Source: an uncultured Dorea sp. (GTDB lineage: Bacteria > Bacillota > Clostridia > Lachnospirales > Lachnospiraceae). Taken from it: a stretch of 64,000 bases of DNA. The translations under genes and the position numbers were made by a program. Positions 434 through 21,571 of this stretch are shown here, in pieces. The first letter of the stretch is position 1. Each line of letters starts with the position of its first letter. The stretch lies in assembly GCA_947652615.1 (NCBI GenBank), contig CANTDX010000005.1:7333-71332 (forward strand). Direction: 5' to 3'. Under the pieces are notes generated by a model that saw nothing but the letters and a program-made list of their open reading frames with translations, was not told where the DNA came from and searched no databases.

Positions 434-556
434 AATGTCCTCCTAACTTAAATCTGCAGTACAAATTCCAGTTGAAGATAGATTCTACAGGATAACACGT
501 AGATTGTCAAGTTTCTGACTCTTTTTCTTCATCTTTTTCTTTCATTCATCGATTCC

Positions 557-856
557 CTACCAATCTATCACATCAAAAAATTCTTCCATATTGCTGCCTT
601 TGCAGTCAAGCATCTCCCATGATAAATCAGTTCGGCTAATTGCAATTTCAAAATTCTTTTTCTTCACAGAATATATATTTTTCACAAACTTATCTTTGCC
701 CCGAAGCCTCTGAATCATAATCTGATAAGAGAACTCACCCCTATTCAGGTACTCATACACTTCTGTATTCTTCTTAAACTGTTCCAAAGTCTGGAATCCA
801 AGAACCGTCCGCAAAAACAGACTTCTGCAAATCAAATCCTTCTGCAGTTTCAACAT
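557..856 (-). CDS. hypothetical protein (low-GC, possibly a gene remnant)
   Basis: 99-aa ORF in an AT-rich stretch. No recognisable motifs and no convincing RBS. Confidence 0.25.
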   Translation of the reverse strand: MLKLQKDLICRSLFLRTVLGFQTLEQFKKNTEVYEYLNRGEFSYQIMIQRLRGKDKFVKNIYSVKKKNFEIAISRTDLSWEMLDCKGSNMEEFFDVIDW

Positions 857-1011
857 AGTTGTCCGAGAAAAATTTTTTTACCTTTCCAGCCGGTGCATTC
901 ATGGAAAATTCACTTTCGTAGTTAAACGAACAAATTAAAAATGCGAATTTCACATTGTATACCCCCGTTAATCTTAATTACTGATTTCAGTATACCAGAA
1001 ACTTCGCATCA

Positions 1012-1593
1012 TTAAAAGACCTTATCGATCAGCCCGAATTCCATCGCTTCCACAGCCGTCAGATAATGATCCCTATCCGTAGCCGCCTCTATCTCCGTCT
1101 CTGTTCTGCCTGTATTCTCTGCCAATATCCGGTTTAATCTCTTTTTGCTGCACTGGATATGATCGGACATAATCTTAATATCCGCTGCCTGCCCCTGGAT
1201 TCCATTCCCATGGATCGCCGGCTGGTGTATCATGATCTCCGCATTCGGCAGCGCCATCCGTTTCCCTTTCGTTCCCCCGGCAAGCAGAAATGCCCCGAAG
1301 CTTGCCGCCATTCCCAGACATATAGTAGAGACGCCGCATTTAATATACTGCATGGTATCATAGATTGCCAGCCCCGCTGTTACGGAACCGCCCGGACTGT
1401 TGATGTAAAAGTGGATATCCTTCTCCGGATCCTGCGCTTCCAGATATAGCATCTGCGCAATGATCAGGCTCGCCGAGTGATCGCTGACCTCCTCACCTAA
1501 GAATATGATCCGGTCTGACAGAAGCCTGGAATAGATGTCGTAGCTTCTCTCCCCTCTGCCAGTCTGTTCAGCCACATAAGGTACATAACTCAT
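1012..1593 (-). CDS. clpP: ATP-dependent Clp protease proteolytic subunit
   Basis: 193 aa with a full-length ClpP pattern: [18 protein letters not shown], catalytic Ser in GMAAS, His in MIHQP, Asp in TDRD. The ATG overlaps the upstream stop as ATGA. Confidence 0.95.
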
Positions 1594-1988
1594 GCCGCCA
1601 TCCTGCCTCCTGTCACTCCAACCAAAACAAATCTCATGCGAATCCTGCGCTGCTTCGGAATAAATACACCGATCCGCCTGTATTCCTGCGGCGTACAGGC
1701 ATATATTCTCCGAAAAGCCTGGGTAAACGCCTGCTGAGAACCATAACCTGCTTCCAACGCGATCTCTACTATGGGCCGGCCGGTTTCTGCCAGCTTCCTT
1801 GCCGACTCATCCAGACGCCTGCCCTGGATATATTTATATACCGTCATGCCTGTATTTGCTTTAAATTCCCTTGCAATGTAATATTTTGAATAACTAAACT
1901 CCTTTGCAATCCTCTCTAACGATAGTTCTTTATCCAGATTATCCTCAATGAACGAGAGTATTTTCTTTGTTAATGTAATATCTCCCAT
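1590..1988 (-). CDS. AraC/MarA-type transcriptional regulator (HTH domain only)
   Basis: Two AraC-type HTH repeats ([22 protein letters not shown] ... [22 protein letters not shown]) with no ligand domain. I chose the start at MGDITL (ATG 1988, AAAGGGG upstream). The ORF track allows an extension to 2084. Confidence 0.8.
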
Positions 1989-2092
1989 ATACTGATGCCC
2001 CTTTTCGTTTTTGTCTATTGTAGCATACAGCATTTGGCACGTCTTAATAAAAATTGCCCTTTTCAAATCCTCTCTTAAAAACATTGTAAATT

Positions 2093-2299
2093 TTAAAAAT
2101 AGAATAACTCCTCGAATTTCTTATCCAGTACAATACACAGGATCAATGCCAGCTTGGCAGTCGGATTAAATACCCCTGTCTCTATCGAGCAGATCGTCTG
2201 GCGGGACACGCCCGCCAGCCTGGCAAGCTCACTCTGAGACAAATTCTTCTCTGTTCTGGCCTGCTTCAAATTATTTCTTAATATGAGTTCCGTATCCAT
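2093..2299 (-). CDS. XRE-family helix-turn-helix transcriptional regulator
   Basis: Cro/C1-type HTH motif (LSQSELARLAGVSRQTICSIETG). Start taken at MDTEL (ATG 2299, GGAGGA upstream). The ORF-track N-terminal extension overlaps the upstream gene. Confidence 0.85.
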   Translation of the reverse strand: MDTELILRNNLKQARTEKNLSQSELARLAGVSRQTICSIETGVFNPTAKLALILCIVLDKKFEELFYF

Positions 2300-2309
2300 A
2301 TGTCCTCCA

Positions 2310-2636
2310 TCAGAAGATTTCCACCAGGTATCCAATGAATAATCCGACCGCCACTCCGAACCATAAGATCCCATAACACAGATCATATTTCCTTCTGAGC
2401 CTGATCCACTTATAGAACCATTGACCGCTCGCTATAAAGCAATAGATCGCATATACGTCATAGTACGGAAGTCCTGCTATCATCTTCACGATCATTGCAG
2501 CAATACAGGCAATAAATCCTGCTATCACTCCCACCTTACAGCCCTTGTTCAAAATATCCTGCTCCATCTCATCCAGTGCGTTGGGCTTCTTATCTTGTAT
2601 TCTGCGCAATACCTCATCTCTATCCATGGATGACAC
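2310..2636 (-). CDS. small membrane protein, XRE-associated (DUF6442-like)
   Basis: 108 aa with a charged N-terminus followed by 3 hydrophobic helices. It sits immediately upstream of the XRE gene, a pairing common in Firmicutes. Confidence 0.6.
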   Translation of the reverse strand: MSSMDRDEVLRRIQDKKPNALDEMEQDILNKGCKVGVIAGFIACIAAMIVKMIAGLPYYDVYAIYCFIASGQWFYKWIRLRRKYDLCYGILWFGVAVGLFIGYLVEIF

Positions 2637-2648
2637 CTCCTATATACA

Positions 2649-2713
2649 GTCAAGTTTTCTTGTCATCTTCATTATATATGTGTCAAGTTTTCTTGTCAAT
2701 ACTTTTCTGTCAA
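2649..2713 (-). promoter_or_regulatory. direct-repeat operator candidate upstream of the membrane-protein/XRE operon
   Basis: GTCAAGTTTTCTTGTCA occurs at 2649-2665 and again exactly at 2682-2698 (33-bp period). A third partial copy TTTTCTGTCAA lies at about 2704-2713. All are 13-77 nt upstream of the start at 2636. Confidence 0.4.
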
Positions 2714-2771
2714 TACACAAAAAGACACCAGCCCTCTCCGACTGATGTCTATCCGTAACAACTATCCTTCT

Positions 2772-3521
2772 TCAATCCATAATGATCCCGCCGTTCACAT
2801 CCAGGATCTCTCCATTAATATAAGCTACCTTATCATTACATAGGAATGCCACCGCCTCCGCGATCTCGCTCAGCTTCCCCAGGCGTCCTGACGGAATCAG
2901 CGGAAGAGCATCCCTCCACCTGTCATTTGCCAGCACCTGAGCGGATTCTACCCATCCTGCCGCAACGGCGTTGGAATTAATATTCGAACCTGACAACTCG
3001 CTCGCGAAGGACTTGGTAAGACTGATCACACCCGCCTTCGCCGCTCCGTATATCGCAACACCTCTTCCTGGATTCTTCCCGTCACAAGAAGAGATATTCA
3101 CGATCCTCCCGTATCCATTTGGCAGCATAGCAGTTTTCACTACTTCTTGCGTTAGGAAGAATAACCCTTTAAGATTCACATCTATGACAAAATCAAACGT
3201 ACTTTCTTCCACTTCGAGGATCGGCGCCGCAGGATACACTCCCGCATTATTCACCAGGATATCGATCCTCCCCATCTTCTCTATGATATGACCGACAGAA
3301 GTATGGATGTCTCCAAGCTCCATAATATCACACTCTACAGCCAGTGCCTTCACACCCATTGCCGTACAGTTCCGGATTACCTCGTCTTCCGCTTTTATCT
3401 TCATATCCAGGATCACCAGATCTGCCCCCTTATCTGCAAGAGTCTCGGCGATACATTTCCCGATTCCTCTCGCCCCGCCTGTCACAACAGCCACTTTTCC
3501 GTTCAACTCTTTTTCTGACAT
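2772..3521 (-). CDS. SDR-family oxidoreductase
   Basis: TGGARGIGK cofactor motif, NNAG, and YGAAKAG (YxxxK) catalytic motif. 249 aa. Confidence 0.9.
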   Translation of the reverse strand: MSEKELNGKVAVVTGGARGIGKCIAETLADKGADLVILDMKIKAEDEVIRNCTAMGVKALAVECDIMELGDIHTSVGHIIEKMGRIDILVNNAGVYPAAPILEVEESTFDFVIDVNLKGLFFLTQEVVKTAMLPNGYGRIVNISSCDGKNPGRGVAIYGAAKAGVISLTKSFASELSGSNINSNAVAAGWVESAQVLANDRWRDALPLIPSGRLGKLSEIAEAVAFLCNDKVAYINGEILDVNGGIIMD

Positions 3522-3522
3522 A

Positions 3523-4752
3523 CTAACTCCTTTCCGCCGCCTTATATATCATATAATCCGTTATGATCACATCAGTTCCATCCTTTGGCGCCAACTCTTC
3601 CATCAATCTTCCCATTCCCATCTTCTTGATCTCAAGCATCATCTCATAAGGGTTTCGGATATCGATCCGTTCGCCCAATGCCTTCAGCACATATTCTAAG
3701 AATAATTCGCCCCTTTCTACAACCTTATCCGCCGTCTCATCTATCCTGTCCCAATCGATCATCTTGGCGTACTCAGGCACATAAGCTTCCAATTCTCTGG
3801 CATATTCCAGGGTTCGCACGATCTCCTCTGCCGTCACATCCGCAGTCAGGCCTCCATCCGCCATTGCAGTGATTGCATGACCAGTCCGATAAAGGAACTG
3901 CCCAGCCATATCACAAAGAAGGCATTCTGATAAATGTGCCGTATTCAGGCCTTTATCCCGATGATTCCGCCCCAGTTTGTTGGTAAATATCATGGAACCT
4001 GTCATAGTTCCTTTATGTATTTTCTTCAGAGCAGACAGGAACACAAGTCTTTTGAACGGCGAATGGAACATATCACCGAAGGAATGAGCAAGCTTCGCGT
4101 GCAGCAGCTCTTCTATAAGATATTTTTCCAGTAGCGCGCATCCGGCAAGAAGGCCCAGATCTCCCGCTGCATTACCGTACCCGTCGTCCAGGTTAGAATG
4201 AATCAGCGTTCCATACTCCCGGCAGTCTGCCATAAGCCTGATCGCCGCTGCCGTACTCTTTGTACGCATTTCCACATCCTGATATTCCGGATAATCCCAA
4301 CCGAAAAACTGTGAAATATTCCCGATTGTTGTGACTCCCGCTTTCAGAGCCGCCCTTACATTCTCATAAGATGCGGGACTTCCGATCATATTGTCCCCCA
4401 GATGCGGCTGCATATGGGCAGAATGTCCCAGCATATTCCAATCCGTCTGTTTCACCATATAGAGTCCCTGTCCGCTGCGGTATTTCTCCCTCTCACCTTC
4501 CGGAAGCGCCATAGCATAATCCAGACTGACTCCAAATCGGTCCAGATGGAGGTTCTTCTCGGCAAGCTTCCGGTCAAGCTCCTCCATCTGTATTTTTAAT
4601 TCCTCAAGAGATGGGCAGCACAGGTGAAAATGATACATGAATCTCCCTTCTTCTGCCATTCTCTCTTTATATTCCATCTCCGAAGCGAATCCATTTCTCT
4701 TCATAAAATTCGTTTTCCCCGGAATTATTCTATCTCTTTCTTGTATTTCCAT
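3523..4752 (-). CDS. conserved hypothetical protein (putative enzyme, function unknown)
   Basis: 409-aa ORF with protein-like composition. It is packed tightly between the NhaC gene (23-nt overlap) and the SDR gene (1-nt gap). I recognise no family motif. Confidence 0.75.
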   Translation of the reverse strand: MEIQERDRIIPGKTNFMKRNGFASEMEYKERMAEEGRFMYHFHLCCPSLEELKIQMEELDRKLAEKNLHLDRFGVSLDYAMALPEGEREKYRSGQGLYMVKQTDWNMLGHSAHMQPHLGDNMIGSPASYENVRAALKAGVTTIGNISQFFGWDYPEYQDVEMRTKSTAAAIRLMADCREYGTLIHSNLDDGYGNAAGDLGLLAGCALLEKYLIEELLHAKLAHSFGDMFHSPFKRLVFLSALKKIHKGTMTGSMIFTNKLGRNHRDKGLNTAHLSECLLCDMAGQFLYRTGHAITAMADGGLTADVTAEEIVRTLEYARELEAYVPEYAKMIDWDRIDETADKVVERGELFLEYVLKALGERIDIRNPYEMMLEIKKMGMGRLMEELAPKDGTDVIITDYMIYKAAERS

Positions 4753-6130
4753 CTATATTTCCTCTCCTTCGCACTCCGATACCTGTGACGGCGCTAAACA
4801 GCATAGCCGCAGGCGTTAATATTCCCAGAAAATAATAAGAAACATACGATCCTACAGATAACCCAAGTGTCTCCGAACAGTAGATTCCGTTCGTTCCCCA
4901 TGGCACCATCGGACAGACAACCGTCCCGCCGTCTTCCAGGGTACGCGACATCACGCTTCTTCGTATCCCAAGCGCATCATACCTTGCCCCCAGAATATTG
5001 GCCGGCAGTATCATCGCCAGATAAGGGTCCGCCGCGAAGAAGCTCAAAAGGAACGTCAGCGCCCAGGTCACGACGATCAATCCGATACTGTTCTCTGTAA
5101 GTCTGCCTGTTTTCTCCAGAACCGCGTTCATGATCCCCGTAGAGCGCATCACACCGGCCAGAGAAAGCGACATCAGCATCAGTGTAACCGTCCCTGTCAT
5201 AGAAGTCAGGCCGCCTCTGGTCAACAGCGTATCCACCGCCTCGATCCCTGTTGTGCCCGCGTATCCGGAATACATATAATGCATTCCGTCTTCCACATTC
5301 TCCCCCTGAACGAAGACCGTGCAGATCAGCCCCAGAGCAGAAGCAATCATCATGGTTGGGATCGCCGGAAATCTCCGTATGATCAGAATCAACAGCACTA
5401 ACAGCGGAAACAGCAGCGCAGGTCCTATATAGAAGCCTTCTTTCAGCCCCGCCGTTATGGTCTGGATCTGGGAGATGTCTGCTTTCTTCCCGCCGTATTT
5501 CACCCCAAGTATCAGGAAGATAACGAGGCTCATCAAATATGCCGGACCTGTCGTATACAGCATAGAACGGGTGTGTTCATATAGATCAGTCTTCGCCACC
5601 GCCGCCGCAAAATTCGTAGAATCACTGAGCGGTGACTGTTTGTCCCCAAAATAAGCGCCGCATAGAATCGCGCCGGCCGTCATCCCTGCCGGTATTCCAA
5701 GTCCCGCACTGATCCCCATAAATGCGACCCCGATCGTTCCGATGGTCGTCCAAGACGAACCTGTGACAAGGGACATCACGCTGCATAAGACCACCACCGA
5801 CACCAGGAAAAACCGGGGTGAAAATACCTGAAACCCATAATATATGATCGCCGGTACCGTTCCGCCTGCCATCCAGGTACCAATGGTCACTCCGATCAGG
5901 CAGATGATCAGTATCGCCTCGATAGATTCTGAGATACTCTCTATCATACCGGCACGCATTTCCTGCCATGTATTACCATTCATCACACCATATAGCATAA
6001 TGATAACAGTGCTGAAGACAAGCGGGATATGAGGGTTCTGCTTAAGCACCAGTACCCCGTATATCAGGACACCGATTGCAAGCAGCAGGCTTACACACGC
6101 CGCAGAAAATATATATTTGTCCTTCCTCAT
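4730..6130 (-). CDS. Na+/H+ antiporter NhaC-family transporter
   Basis: Polytopic membrane protein with NhaC-type blocks (GTVPAIIYYG, TGSSWTTIGT, GDKQSPLSDSTN). Start chosen at ATG 6130, 8 nt after GGAAGGAG. Confidence 0.85.
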   Translation of the reverse strand: MRKDKYIFSAACVSLLLAIGVLIYGVLVLKQNPHIPLVFSTVIIMLYGVMNGNTWQEMRAGMIESISESIEAILIICLIGVTIGTWMAGGTVPAIIYYGFQVFSPRFFLVSVVVLCSVMSLVTGSSWTTIGTIGVAFMGISAGLGIPAGMTAGAILCGAYFGDKQSPLSDSTNFAAAVAKTDLYEHTRSMLYTTGPAYLMSLVIFLILGVKYGGKKADISQIQTITAGLKEGFYIGPALLFPLLVLLILIIRRFPAIPTMMIASALGLICTVFVQGENVEDGMHYMYSGYAGTTGIEAVDTLLTRGGLTSMTGTVTLMLMSLSLAGVMRSTGIMNAVLEKTGRLTENSIGLIVVTWALTFLLSFFAADPYLAMILPANILGARYDALGIRRSVMSRTLEDGGTVVCPMVPWGTNGIYCSETLGLSVGSYVSYYFLGILTPAAMLFSAVTGIGVRRRGNIDGNTRKR

Positions 6131-13821: not shown

Positions 13822-13955
13822 GTAACAGTTCAGATACCTTCACTGTTACCGGCATCCGGCCATTAAAAATCGCTTCGCGGTGGGCCGTATGTTTTCAGGC
13901 TCTACTCTATGGCACGGTCAGCGCAGTGAATGCGCAGACCTGTCTGAACTGTTAC
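13822..13955. mobile_element. 134-bp MITE-like element, copy A
   Basis: 131/134 nt identical to 18730-18863. 13-bp terminal inverted repeats GTAACAGTTCAGA / TCTGAACTGTTAC. Flanked by 8-mers CATCTTCC / CATATTTC that match at 6 of 8 positions. Confidence 0.7.
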
Positions 13956-18729: not shown

Positions 18730-18863
18730 GTAACAGTTCAGATACCTTCACTGTTACAGGCATCCGGCCATTAAAAATCGCTTCGCGATGGGCCGTATGC
18801 TTTCAGGCTCTACTCTATGGCACGGTCAGCGCAGTGAATGCGCAGACCTGTCTGAACTGTTAC
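18730..18863. mobile_element. 134-bp MITE-like element, copy B
   Basis: Same element as 13822-13955 with 3 mismatches. Flanked by a perfect 8-bp direct repeat TCTGTATC (18722-18729 and 18864-18871). Confidence 0.75.
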
Positions 18864-18960
18864 TCTGTATCAACTATATCATTGTGCAGTTTGTATGGAA
18901 AGTTGAAAACTTTCGGGTTCATTGGACAAATTCTAGTAGGATCATTTCTATTTTTACGCA

Positions 18961-18997
18961 CAAAAAAACCGTGAAATAATATGTCCATCATTTCACG
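18961..18997 (-). terminator. rho-independent terminator of the TM/TIR-like cassette
   Basis: Minus-strand hairpin CGTGAAAT-(12 nt)-ATTTCACG followed by G and a run of U (GTTTTTTTG), 12 nt after the stop at 19009. Confidence 0.7.
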
Positions 18998-19008
18998 ATT
19001 TTGTCCAC

Positions 19009-19386
19009 TTACATATTTGCAAATATCATTTCTTCAACTTTTGAATTTTTCATAAATTCATCTCTTGAATTACAATTCAAAATTTGATTAATATCTTTCT
19101 CATTGATTTCTATAATGGGTATGTTCCTTTGCCTCGCAATATATAATTCCTTTCCTACCCAACTAGAAGAATTCACATCAGACGACTTTATTAAACATAA
19201 AATATTAGATTCCTCAAGCACTTTATAAACATACCCCTGATGATCTGGCGAACAATTATCCAAGATATCAAAATACGTTTCAACTGTACTGTAATCTCGA
19301 AATTTATTTTTGATACTAAGAAGAATATCGATATTAATTTCACTATCCCTTAACGTATAACTAAAAAAGATTTTATTATTACGCAC
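19009..19386 (-). CDS. small TIR-like domain protein
   Basis: KIFFSYTLRDSE (beta-A, like IFISYxxxD), ILCLIKSSDVNSSSWVGKELYIA (SxW..E block) and NIPIIEI (beta-D). Start chosen at GTG 19386, 7 nt after GGGGGA and overlapping the upstream stop (GTGCGTAA). The ORF track allows 19410. Confidence 0.55.
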   Translation of the reverse strand: MRNNKIFFSYTLRDSEINIDILLSIKNKFRDYSTVETYFDILDNCSPDHQGYVYKVLEESNILCLIKSSDVNSSSWVGKELYIARQRNIPIIEINEKDINQILNCNSRDEFMKNSKVEEMIFANM

Positions 19387-19876
19387 TAATATTCCCCCAT
19401 ATTTCAACACAAACTTTAATTAACAAAGGAGCAATAATTGAAACAATAATTAATCCCAAATATAGAATCTGTGATCCATTAAAAAATGATCGGAATAACC
19501 GCCTCTTACTTCTATTCTCTGACCGAACCGGCAATCCATTCCGCTTTTTTATCTCATCCATCCTCTTGTTCATATTCTCTCTTAATCTATCCTGATAAAA
19601 ATATAATACTACATCAACAGCATAAAACAAAACCGGTATCAGAATCCCTAATAACTCTAGAGCAATTACAAGATTGGACAATGGACTTTCTTTATAGATA
19701 CCTGCCAACAACGTATATACCGCGATCTGTACCGTGACACATAATTTTTTCGTTTCCAAACTATTATTACTGAAATTCAATGTTGCTTTATGTAGCTGAT
19801 CTATTTGAATCTTATCTAATTCATCTGCTATTACCCTCTGCTCATCACTCAAATTCCTTTTATTTGCTCCCAACAA
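19379..19876 (-). CDS. three-TM membrane protein of unknown function
   Basis: 165 aa: a soluble charged N-terminus (about 45 aa), two adjacent hydrophobic helices, a very basic loop (KRMDEIKKRNGLPVRSENRSKRRLFR) and a third helix. TTG start (19876 or 19873) follows GAGGTGGA. Confidence 0.55.
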   Translation of the reverse strand: MLGANKRNLSDEQRVIADELDKIQIDQLHKATLNFSNNSLETKKLCVTVQIAVYTLLAGIYKESPLSNLVIALELLGILIPVLFYAVDVVLYFYQDRLRENMNKRMDEIKKRNGLPVRSENRSKRRLFRSFFNGSQILYLGLIIVSIIAPLLIKVCVEIWGNISA

Positions 19877-19921
19877 TCCACCTCAATGATATCTTTCTCA
19901 CTTTTTAATAGTTCTCTATAT

Positions 19922-19950
19922 AATATAAGCCAGATAAATTGAAATTTCAA
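19922..19950 (-). promoter_or_regulatory. candidate sigma-A promoter of the TM/TIR-like cassette
   Basis: On the minus strand: TTGAAA, a 17-nt spacer, then TATATT. It lies about 45 nt upstream of the TTG start. Confidence 0.4.
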
Positions 19951-20023
19951 TATTTGTACATCATATTCGCCATTTTATTACAGTTATTTTCTTCATTTTA
20001 TATCATATTTTGCCGAAAAATGT

Positions 20024-21571
20024 CTAATACTTTTTCATCTCCCGCAGCGATGCCGGAGACACCCCGTAACACTGCTTAAACTTCCGGTAAAAATAACTGG
20101 TATCCGGATATCCCACCTGCCTCGCAATGTCATTGATCTTCATATTGGTATTCAGGATCAGCTCTTTCGCAATCCCATTCTTCGTGTTACTGAGATACTG
20201 TGCAAAGGAACATCCCACTTCCTTCTGGAACAGCTGCCCCAGATAAGACGCATTCATATGGTACTTATACGCCAGTGTCTTGAGGTTCATATCTTCTCTG
20301 TAATTCTTCTGAACTTCCGCGATGATCTGGCGCACCACAGGGGTATACTGAGAATTCTCTTCATGCATACATTCGATGATCTCTGTAATCTCTGACACAA
20401 ATGCCGTCTTAATTCCGTAAATATCATCTGCACCAAAAATCGCCTCCATAAGTTCCGAGAGATCATGGAACCTACACGATTCAAGTTTGTATTCTTTTTT
20501 CATATCCTGGAGCAACATTGCGATCTTCACTGCAATTTGATACAATGAACCCGCATCAGCATCTTTTTGTATATTGTTGATAAGCAGGTCTTCTATATAT
20601 CTGATCGCCGATTCCTTCTCTTTCTTCAGAATGAATTTCCTAAGCCGTGCTTCATCCATACTGATCGCTTCTGTTTTCCGGTCATGGATCTGCCTTTGGC
20701 TGATACAGCTTCCGTATCCTTCAATGACCAGATATTTTTGAAGTTTCTTTGCTGATCTGTAAGCCTTCGGAAGCTGTTCGATTCTCTGAATGGATGGTCC
20801 TACGCAGACAAATGTCATTAGATTGTATCTGCTCTCAATCCGATTCTGAAGATCCTGAAAATATTCCTGCACCTGCTCTTCTCCCATATCACCGGCTTCC
20901 AGTACCATTAACAGATTGTCCGGCGGAAGATGTACAAGCTCAAGCCCATTTTCTTGCTTTAAGTCCACGATCACATCTGCAATTTTATTCTCTTTTAAGC
21001 CGTCCATATTCCATCTCATCACTGCTGCATAGAAGTTTGCACCCGCTTTTATGATTCCCAACGCTTCTGCAAACTTTTGGTATTCTTTCTCTTCTGGTTC
21101 CGTTTTCCCTAACTCATCTGCCGCAGGCTTCCCATTTAAGAAATGCATCCACTCGGTCTTCTCATCAATATAACGGATCTTCTCCTTATCCATCTCCTCA
21201 AGCTTCTGTACCGTCTCCCGAAGCTGACGCTCCAGTTCCTCCTCATTGACAGGCTTCAGGATATAATTCTCCACATCCAGCCGGACCGCCTCTCTGGCAT
21301 AGGAGAACTCATCATATCCGGTCAATATGATAAAGCGCACCTGTTCATCCATCTCACGGATCTTCCGTAGAAGTATAAGCCCATCCATCTCCGGCATGCT
21401 GATATCCGTCACCACGATGTGCACCGGCTCCTTCTCCCACAGTTCAAGCGCCTCCATGCCGTCGTGCGCCATATGCACCACGTCAAGACCCAGCGCTTCC
21501 CAATCTATGATATTCCGAATTCCCTGTAAGATCAGTTCTTCATCCTCCACTATCATTACCTTCTTCATCAT
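20024..21571 (-). CDS. response regulator with AraC-type output domain (YesN-like)
   Basis: REC domain (MIVEDEELI, VVTDISMPEMDG, phospho-acceptor Asp) plus a C-terminal AraC HTH (INDIARQVGYPDTSYFYRKFK). Confidence 0.9.
   Translation of the reverse strand: MMKKVMIVEDEELILQGIRNIIDWEALGLDVVHMAHDGMEALELWEKEPVHIVVTDISMPEMDGLILLRKIREMDEQVRFIILTGYDEFSYAREAVRLDVENYILKPVNEEELERQLRETVQKLEEMDKEKIRYIDEKTEWMHFLNGKPAADELGKTEPEEKEYQKFAEALGIIKAGANFYAAVMRWNMDGLKENKIADVIVDLKQENGLELVHLPPDNLLMVLEAGDMGEEQVQEYFQDLQNRIESRYNLMTFVCVGPSIQRIEQLPKAYRSAKKLQKYLVIEGYGSCISQRQIHDRKTEAISMDEARLRKFILKKEKESAIRYIEDLLINNIQKDADAGSLYQIAVKIAMLLQDMKKEYKLESCRFHDLSELMEAIFGADDIYGIKTAFVSEITEIIECMHEENSQYTPVVRQIIAEVQKNYREDMNLKTLAYKYHMNASYLGQLFQKEVGCSFAQYLSNTKNGIAKELILNTNMKINDIARQVGYPDTSYFYRKFKQCYGVSPASLREMKKY

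Follow-up and report, generated by a model that had tools for sequence, protein, structure and literature searches.

The subject of this report is a two-gene cassette in a 64,000-nucleotide stretch of DNA (the window) from an uncultured Dorea sp. (NCBI GenBank assembly GCA_947652615.1, contig CANTDX010000005.1, positions 7,333 to 71,332 of the forward strand). The cassette encodes a 165-residue transmembrane (TM) protein and a minimal TIR-domain protein of 125 residues. Judged by sequence comparison, it is a divergent, predicted member of a kind of system that has already been catalogued, as PDC-M50 in PADLOC and as type V Thoeris, and is not a new system. A first-pass annotation of the window, made from the letters alone, had suggested either an undescribed sensor/effector pair or a toxin-immunity pair. 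The former proposal falls, as the TM family is of the PDC-M50A type and the TIR groups with the type V TIRs of a published table (see below), so that the pair belongs with an already named system; specific support for the latter is lacking. The two genes are the following.

19379..19876, minus strand: gene for the 165-residue three-helix TM protein, the predicted effector (ThsF-like, divergent PDC-M50A); from the open reading frame, an AlphaFold2 model and profiles
19009..19386, minus strand: gene for the 125-residue minimal TIR-domain protein (ThsB-like); from the open reading frame, profiles, an AlphaFold2 model and Foldseek

Families of the two proteins and their co-conservation

The PDC entries of PADLOC are 145 untested phage defence candidates obtained by guilt-by-embedding (Payne et al., bioRxiv 10.1101/2024.01.29.577857); no paper naming PDC-M50 was found in the literature. 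The PDC-M50A models are matched by 92 of the 132 members of the TM family (best E value 6.3e-11). Alignment of the family of the window protein with that of the core PDC-M50A proteins using hhalign gave a probability of 97.2% and an E value of 3.6e-11 over 120 columns, hmmsearch between the two families gave cross-matches in both directions, and conserved S, K, F, D and R positions are common to both. Core PDC-M50A proteins are encoded on plasmids of C. botulinum, Terribacillus, Vibrio chagasii, Providencia, Klebsiella and Ligilactobacillus, where they score 1e-27 to 1e-48 and each adjoins a TIR gene; the neighbouring TIR in Ligilactobacillus is PDC-M50B (6e-68). These profile comparisons suggest that the TM family of the window is a divergent branch of PDC-M50A.

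The 125-residue protein is a TIR-domain protein. Its AlphaFold2 model (predicted local distance difference test, pLDDT, 93.3; predicted TM-score, pTM, 0.88) has the order βA-αA-βB-αB-βC-αC-βD, and the top 43 Foldseek matches to the model in the PDB are all TIR domains (probability 1.00, TM-score 0.5–0.64), including RPP1, RPS4, SPARTA TIR-APAZ, SARM1, a B. cereus TIR and ThsB. The TIR hallmark motifs that had been read from the sequence at first pass are real, since F7, F8, S9, Y10 and T11 (FFSYT), D40, Q50, S74, W76 and E80 show no variation among 42 members of the family. In a search of PDB sequences the family profile found plant TIR NADases (E = 1e-5), with its SkWvkkEl segment (S-x-W-x3-E, the last residue being E80) aligned to SSWCLDEL, which we take from established knowledge to be the motif with the catalytic Glu. 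The model, Foldseek and the family profile thus bear out the earlier expectation of a TIR fold with a catalytic-type Glu, and NAD+ cleavage or cyclase activity is predicted. The match of the window TIR to the Pfam family ThsB_TIR (20.2 bits, E = 8e-4) is below the cutoff of 21.2, and that to TIR_2 reaches 16.1 bits against a cutoff of 28; several relatives have precomputed PF13676 or PF08937 matches. The PADLOC ThsB models are matched by 40 of the 42 family members (best E value 4.8e-14). The PDC-M50B model does not match the window TIR and matches three of the 42 members, at best with an E value of 1.2e-3.

Type V Thoeris consists of a TIR protein and a three-TM 'DUF2270' effector termed ThsF (Yirmiya et al., bioRxiv 10.64898/2025.12.03.692087, December 2025). 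The type V system of B. thuringiensis (Bt) defends, as validated in B. subtilis, and its signal is 3'-cyclic ADP-ribose (3'cADPR); in AlphaFold3 (AF3) models ThsF forms a heptameric ring with basic pockets between protomers (Yirmiya et al.). TIR cluster 2615943391 is filed in Table S1 of that work as 'DUF2270 - Type V', the effector labels being derived from cluster representatives and noisy by the authors' own statement (Yirmiya et al.). By BLASTP the window TIR is 44% identical to IMG 2706002662 (E = 2e-25) and 36% identical to the ThsB of V. cholerae ZWU0020 (E = 5e-18), both of which Table S1 assigns to this cluster. The literature found on 8xMP, DUF2270 or ThsF was Yirmiya et al. alone; a domain-centric paper (NAR 2026) was not relevant to the TM and TIR architecture.

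The TM protein was modelled by AlphaFold2 (pLDDT 86) as all-helical, with helices at residues 11–60 (a soluble N-terminus running into TM1), 66–112 (TM2 with a cytoplasmic extension) and 134–164 (TM3). The soluble N-terminus, the three helices and the basic loop noted in the first-pass annotation all stand, the loop at residues 94–134 containing 13 Lys/Arg and five Asp/Glu residues; the hydropathy signal of TM1 is weak, with only moderate Kyte–Doolittle hydrophobicity. The conserved residues of the family (Q27, L28, S36, K43, F84, D88, Y92, Y94, Q95, R99, N133, S135 and Y139) are concentrated directly before TM1, after TM2 and before TM3, and by the positive-inside rule these clusters are predicted to lie on the cytoplasmic face. 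An exhaustive profile search gave 250 clusters of the TM family at 50% identity, nearly all of them stand-alone proteins of about 145–200 residues. Nothing meaningful was found for the TM protein in Pfam, NCBIfam or PHROGs (YlaC at E = 0.069 and transporter fragments), Foldseek comparison of its model with the PDB and BFVD gave generic helical hairpins alone (E > 0.2), and the family profile found no PDB sequence below an E value of 0.4. A tblastn search of plasmids gave no match to the window TM protein, nor to the V. cholerae type V TIR.

The two families occur together. At 19 of 19 distinct loci a TM-family gene is followed immediately downstream, on the same strand, by a TIR-family open reading frame, and the co-occurrence elsewhere that the first-pass annotation had put forward as a check is therefore found, in mobile or defence contexts. 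The two genes overlap or lie a few bases apart, and either protein used as the query retrieved loci with both. DNA similarity between cassettes is limited to the coding region, which indicates that the pair moves as a unit. Two natural fusions were identified: P0190 has the TM domain, an extra fourth TM helix (TM4) and a TIR of the window family (E = 2e-28), and P0182 has a ThsB_TIR domain followed by the TM domain. The extra TM4 of P0190 fits a three-helix unit of N-in/C-out topology, as it would return the fused TIR to the cytoplasm.

Relatives of the pair were found in other gut Clostridia, namely Intestinimonas, Pseudoflavonifractor and Aminipila. Among the loci are a mobilisable element that bears Mob_Pre and SymE (L001), a locus with serine recombinases nearby (L005), a defence island of Aminipila that contains GmrSD, HEPN and ABC-3C-like genes (L007) and a MobA element with HNH and RelB/ParE genes (L011). 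In Intestinimonas massiliensis (LR131147.1, locus L010, 6727–10673) a type II Thoeris locus encloses the pair. A scan of viral contigs yielded one locus (L030; IMGVR_UViG_3300045988_160775, 443–5593), in which the pair stands between terminase-like genes and a gene for an HNH-like protein of 256 residues; this suggests phage- or prophage-borne carriage.

Several observations on these relatives stand by themselves. The Intestinimonas pair is flanked by a gene for a 277-residue TIR protein and by a ThsB-like (202 residues) and ThsA_Macro (300 residues) pair, such that two TIR systems are interleaved. At L001–L004, which carry the Lachnoclostridium-type cassette, a 70-residue HTH_3/HTH_26 (helix-turn-helix, HTH) gene lies directly upstream of the pair (3875–4087 in L001); neither the window nor most other loci have it, and it may be an optional regulator. 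Either this HTH gene or the Macro genes near L010 and L012 might have been a third component, a possibility rejected as none is conserved across loci or present in the window. A relative of the L012-type TIR, P0065 (221 residues), combines a TIR of the window family with a C-terminal AraC-type HTH domain (PF12833, PF00165) in a single open reading frame, and may be a genuine fusion or an artefact of deletion or assembly; in the window the cassette lies directly downstream of a gene for an AraC-type (YesN-like) regulator. PDC-M50A-like proteins paired with TIRs are widespread on conjugative plasmids of Klebsiella and E. coli (H15–H30), with 140 matching plasmid records, and on the Klebsiella plasmid pWP3-W18-ESBL-02_2 (L024, 3270–5049) an IS3 insertion has cut the TM gene short.

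Layout and setting of the cassette

The remaining features of the cassette are as follows.

about 18865..20020, no strand: low-GC block containing the entire cassette; from the composition profile, a fine GC scan and the flanking open reading frames
19922..19950, minus strand: putative sigma-70-type promoter, TTGAAA-17-TATATT; from a consensus match, its function being inferred
18958..19002, minus strand: intrinsic terminator, a hairpin with 16-bp arms followed by U7; from inverted repeat I4 and RNA folding

The AT-rich block described at first pass is real: the G+C content is 0.305 at 18961–19950 compared with 0.462 across the window, and is about 30% over the block as a whole (~1.15 kb). At third codon positions (GC3) it is 0.25–0.32 in the cassette genes and 0.54–0.68 in the flanking genes. 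The TM gene starts with TTG, followed one codon on by another TTG, and has a GAGGTGG Shine–Dalgarno sequence directly upstream. The TIR gene starts with GTG, from which its 125 residues are counted, and the reported overlap of this start with the upstream stop is confirmed by reading the sequence: in GTGCGTAA at 19386–19379 the GTG and the TAA stop of the TM gene share eight nucleotides. The identical eight-nucleotide overlap occurs in the homologous loci L001 and L005.

The promoter claimed for the cassette is present as a match, TTGAAA-17-TATATT at 19950–19922, which agrees with the consensus at 10 of 12 positions and is one of five joint-top matches in the region. Since such matches are common in AT-rich DNA (15 were found in the region and 7.4 were expected), it carries limited weight and, taken alone, is weak evidence. 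The -35 hexamer of this promoter is overlapped by a perfect palindrome of 14 bp, ATTGAAATTTCAAT, at about 19939–19952 (minus strand). The palindrome may serve as an operator, although no regulator gene adjoins it in the window. The proposed terminator is well supported, as the hairpin at 18965–19002 with its U7 tract folds at -19.5 kcal/mol (z = -5.2) and none of 200 shuffled sequences folds equally well; a simple terminator scan had passed over it owing to the GC and loop rules of that scan.

On one side of the cassette is the gene for a YesN-like response regulator, which has its stop codon at 20024, and on the other is the region upstream of an operon for ABC sugar permeases; the flanks in the window encode a histidine kinase, the YesN-like regulator and ABC sugar permeases. 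A metagenome-assembled genome (MAG) of an uncultured Dorea sp. is collinear with the window, with 97.3% DNA identity over the surrounding ~6.7 kb, and has the cassette with both open reading frames intact. This MAG alone was returned, as a near-identical match, by a narrow peptide-pattern scan of genome contigs with TIR alignment, which is not a taxonomic survey. Target-site duplications, in the form of direct repeats flanking the cassette, were sought and none was convincing.

A separate 134-bp element occurs twice in the window, at 13822–13955 and 18730–18863, with about 96% identity between the copies, both of which are intergenic. Its ends are perfect 13-nucleotide terminal inverted repeats, GTAACAGTTCAGA ... 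TCTGAACTGTTAC, and the copy at 18730–18863 directly adjoins the low-GC cassette on its downstream side. The element has no match in Rfam; it looks like a repeat of the miniature inverted-repeat transposable element (MITE) or repetitive extragenic palindromic (REP) sort, or a structured element of another kind.

Proposed mechanism and alternatives

The TM and TIR module is, by prediction, almost certainly an anti-phage system. For the cassette in the window we favour, with some reserve, a horizontally acquired anti-phage signalling system of the Thoeris kind, nearest to type V and PDC-M50, that would act by abortive infection. The two genes would share a transcript made from the cassette's own promoter and be coupled in translation. 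The ThsB-like TIR would be a cytoplasmic sensor and signal generator, which on phage infection would use its Glu80 site to turn NAD+ into a signal derived from ADP-ribose, a cyclic ADP-ribose (cADPR) isomer being the default expectation. The ThsF-like TM protein, with three helices in an N-in/C-out arrangement, would homo-oligomerize in the membrane, and the signal would bind its conserved polar and basic cytoplasmic cluster, made up of the N-terminal helix (QLHxATLxFS..ETKK), the segment after TM2 (D..YYQxxLR) and that before TM3 (FNxSQ). Binding would cause the TM protein to open or disrupt the membrane and the infection to be aborted. Triggering by phage, the identity of the signal, oligomerization and membrane disruption are inferred here by homology with related systems. 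The effector superfamily partners at least three unrelated TIR clades, as would be expected more readily of an effector that recognizes a small molecule than of one with a single specific protein partner.

Several points weigh against this reading. The match of the window TM protein itself to PDC-M50A is weak (E = 3.8e-4, 18.7 bits, PADLOC's own cutoffs not being applied), spanning positions 18–130 of the 134 in the model. It has no match to Pfam PF10028 (DUF2270) in hmmscan at E values up to 10, and of the 132 members of its family four match PF10028, weakly (best E value 1.5e-4); the plasmid-encoded PDC-M50A proteins likewise gave no PF10028 match in hmmscan. The tie to Bt ThsF is indirect and runs through plasmid homologues that adjoin TIRs 45–50% identical to Bt ThsB. 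The TIR has no additional sensor domain, which leaves the detection of phage unexplained, and the cassette is solitary in the window, between a two-component system and a sugar transporter and in no defence island. V. cholerae ZWU0020, the sole tested representative of the cluster of the window TIR, gave no defence in E. coli (Yirmiya et al.). The fusions and the tight coupling are, moreover, equally compatible with a direct protein–protein mechanism.

One such mechanism would dispense with a diffusible signal. TIR domains act as NAD+-depleting effectors in other defence systems (TIR-pAgo, CBASS and Pycsar contexts), and here the TM protein could be a sensor or anchor that binds the TIR directly, responding for example to perturbation of the membrane at phage DNA entry or by holin action, with the TIR as the effector that depletes NAD+. 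We regard a membrane-tethered NADase of this type as unlikely but deserving of serious attention. It would account for single-chain fusions in both orders and for the eight-nucleotide overlap kept in several loci, which implies tightly coupled co-expression; the TIR is minimal and lacks a sensor domain, and SPARTA TIR-APAZ and SARM1, among its Foldseek matches, are effector NADases. A caution given by Yirmiya et al. (bioRxiv 10.64898/2025.12.03.692087) points the same way: where a configuration is unverified, the TIR is possibly an NAD+-depleting effector. The same authors, however, found that the validated type V system acts through 3'cADPR added extracellularly. Partnership with at least three unrelated TIR clades would also be unexpected if the effector family relied on a specific protein contact, and the conserved basic and polar cytoplasmic cluster of the TM protein resembles a ligand pocket. 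A related proposal, which we consider doubtful, is that the clade uses a TIR-derived signal other than 3'cADPR or a TM–TIR complex assembled in the membrane with no diffusible messenger. It is hinted at by the recurrence of natural fusions and by the failure of the tested relative in E. coli. The clade, which is centred on Clostridia, has the invariant TM-protein motifs QLHxATLNFS..ETKK, YYQDRLR and FNGSQ.

Readings in which the cassette does not respond to phage are much less credible. In an addiction module of the toxin–antitoxin type, the TM protein would be a constitutive toxin curbed by the TIR, or the reverse, and the pair would stabilize mobile elements. A small, translationally coupled two-gene operon found on mobilisable elements and plasmids beside the toxin–antitoxin genes SymE, RelB/ParE and MazE invites this comparison. 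We nevertheless consider it improbable: with its catalytic-type Glu invariant and its TIR active-site motif complete, the small protein looks like an enzyme and not a simple antitoxin, chromosomal and phage-borne copies occur in defence islands, and homologous families already have catalogue entries as defence candidates or systems. Least credible is the view that the cassette is what remains of a mobile element in decay, functionless in the genome of the window. The strongly atypical composition and the solitary position, without an integrase or other mobile genes in the vicinity, would suit a degenerate passenger, but both open reading frames are intact and have all of the family-invariant residues, a plausible promoter, Shine–Dalgarno sequences and a terminator are present, and the intact cassette is kept in the second Dorea genome (97.3% identity over ~6.7 kb).

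Comparison with known systems

If the cassette is the Thoeris-type signalling system favoured above, it introduces no new principle, its architecture and likely logic having been published (type V Thoeris) and catalogued (PDC-M50). It does place a TIR-based immune module in Dorea, a common Lachnospiraceae genus of the human gut, and its residual novelty lies in the position of the clade near the detection limits of the libraries and in its putative signal and activation mode. The window branch is at or below these limits in the libraries tested (ThsB_TIR at 20.2 bits with a cutoff of 21.2, no DUF2270 match and a weak match to PDC-M50A), and such systems may therefore be under-counted in surveys of defence in the gut microbiome. 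A standard PADLOC run may miss the window locus because the PDC-M50A match is weak and there is no PDC-M50B match. At 125 and 165 residues the two proteins are among the smallest TIR and effector pairs known, a size convenient for structural work on the gating of a membrane effector by a TIR product, and the natural fusions are a ready-made topology constraint.

Among the Thoeris types, types I and II had been set aside in the first-pass annotation, and both exclusions hold. Neither protein, nor the cassette, has the SIR2 or SLOG domain of type I. Type II pairs ThsB with a TM-Macro protein and uses His-ADPR; it resembles what is predicted for the window pair in that a TIR makes the signal and the effector disrupts the membrane, whereas the 165-residue protein has no Macro match, no detectable similarity to ThsA_Macro and, in its all-helical AlphaFold2 model, no room for a Macro fold.

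The TM protein can also be compared with the SLATT effector of type VII Thoeris, which responds to cADPR, and with the TM effectors of CBASS and Pycsar, all of them small helical membrane proteins that are thought to oligomerize on binding a nucleotide signal. It has a partial, weak match to the 4TM effector model of CBASS (E = 1.5e-3). In contrast to those systems, no SLATT match was found in Pfam for the window TM protein or its 132 relatives, and there is no cyclase gene. An identity as a SLATT or CBASS 4TM protein was dropped because matches were lacking.

The closest likenesses are to PDC-M50 and type V Thoeris. PDC-M50A is a three-TM protein of ~135 residues and PDC-M50B a ThsB-like TIR, as in the window pair, from which they differ in that the window TM protein matches PDC-M50A only weakly and the window TIR does not match PDC-M50B. 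Type V Thoeris is, like the cassette, a two-gene operon that encodes a TIR and a three-TM protein of ~140–170 residues; the basic cytoplasmic region of the window TM protein recalls the pockets of ThsF, and its family is homologous (hhalign probability 97%) to three-TM proteins beside TIRs similar to Bt ThsB. The window TM protein, however, is longer at the N-terminus, has strongly conserved motifs of its own and no DUF2270 match; its TIR partner is minimal (125 residues, compared with 251 in Bt ThsB), and in the window clade the gene order is invariably TM and then TIR.

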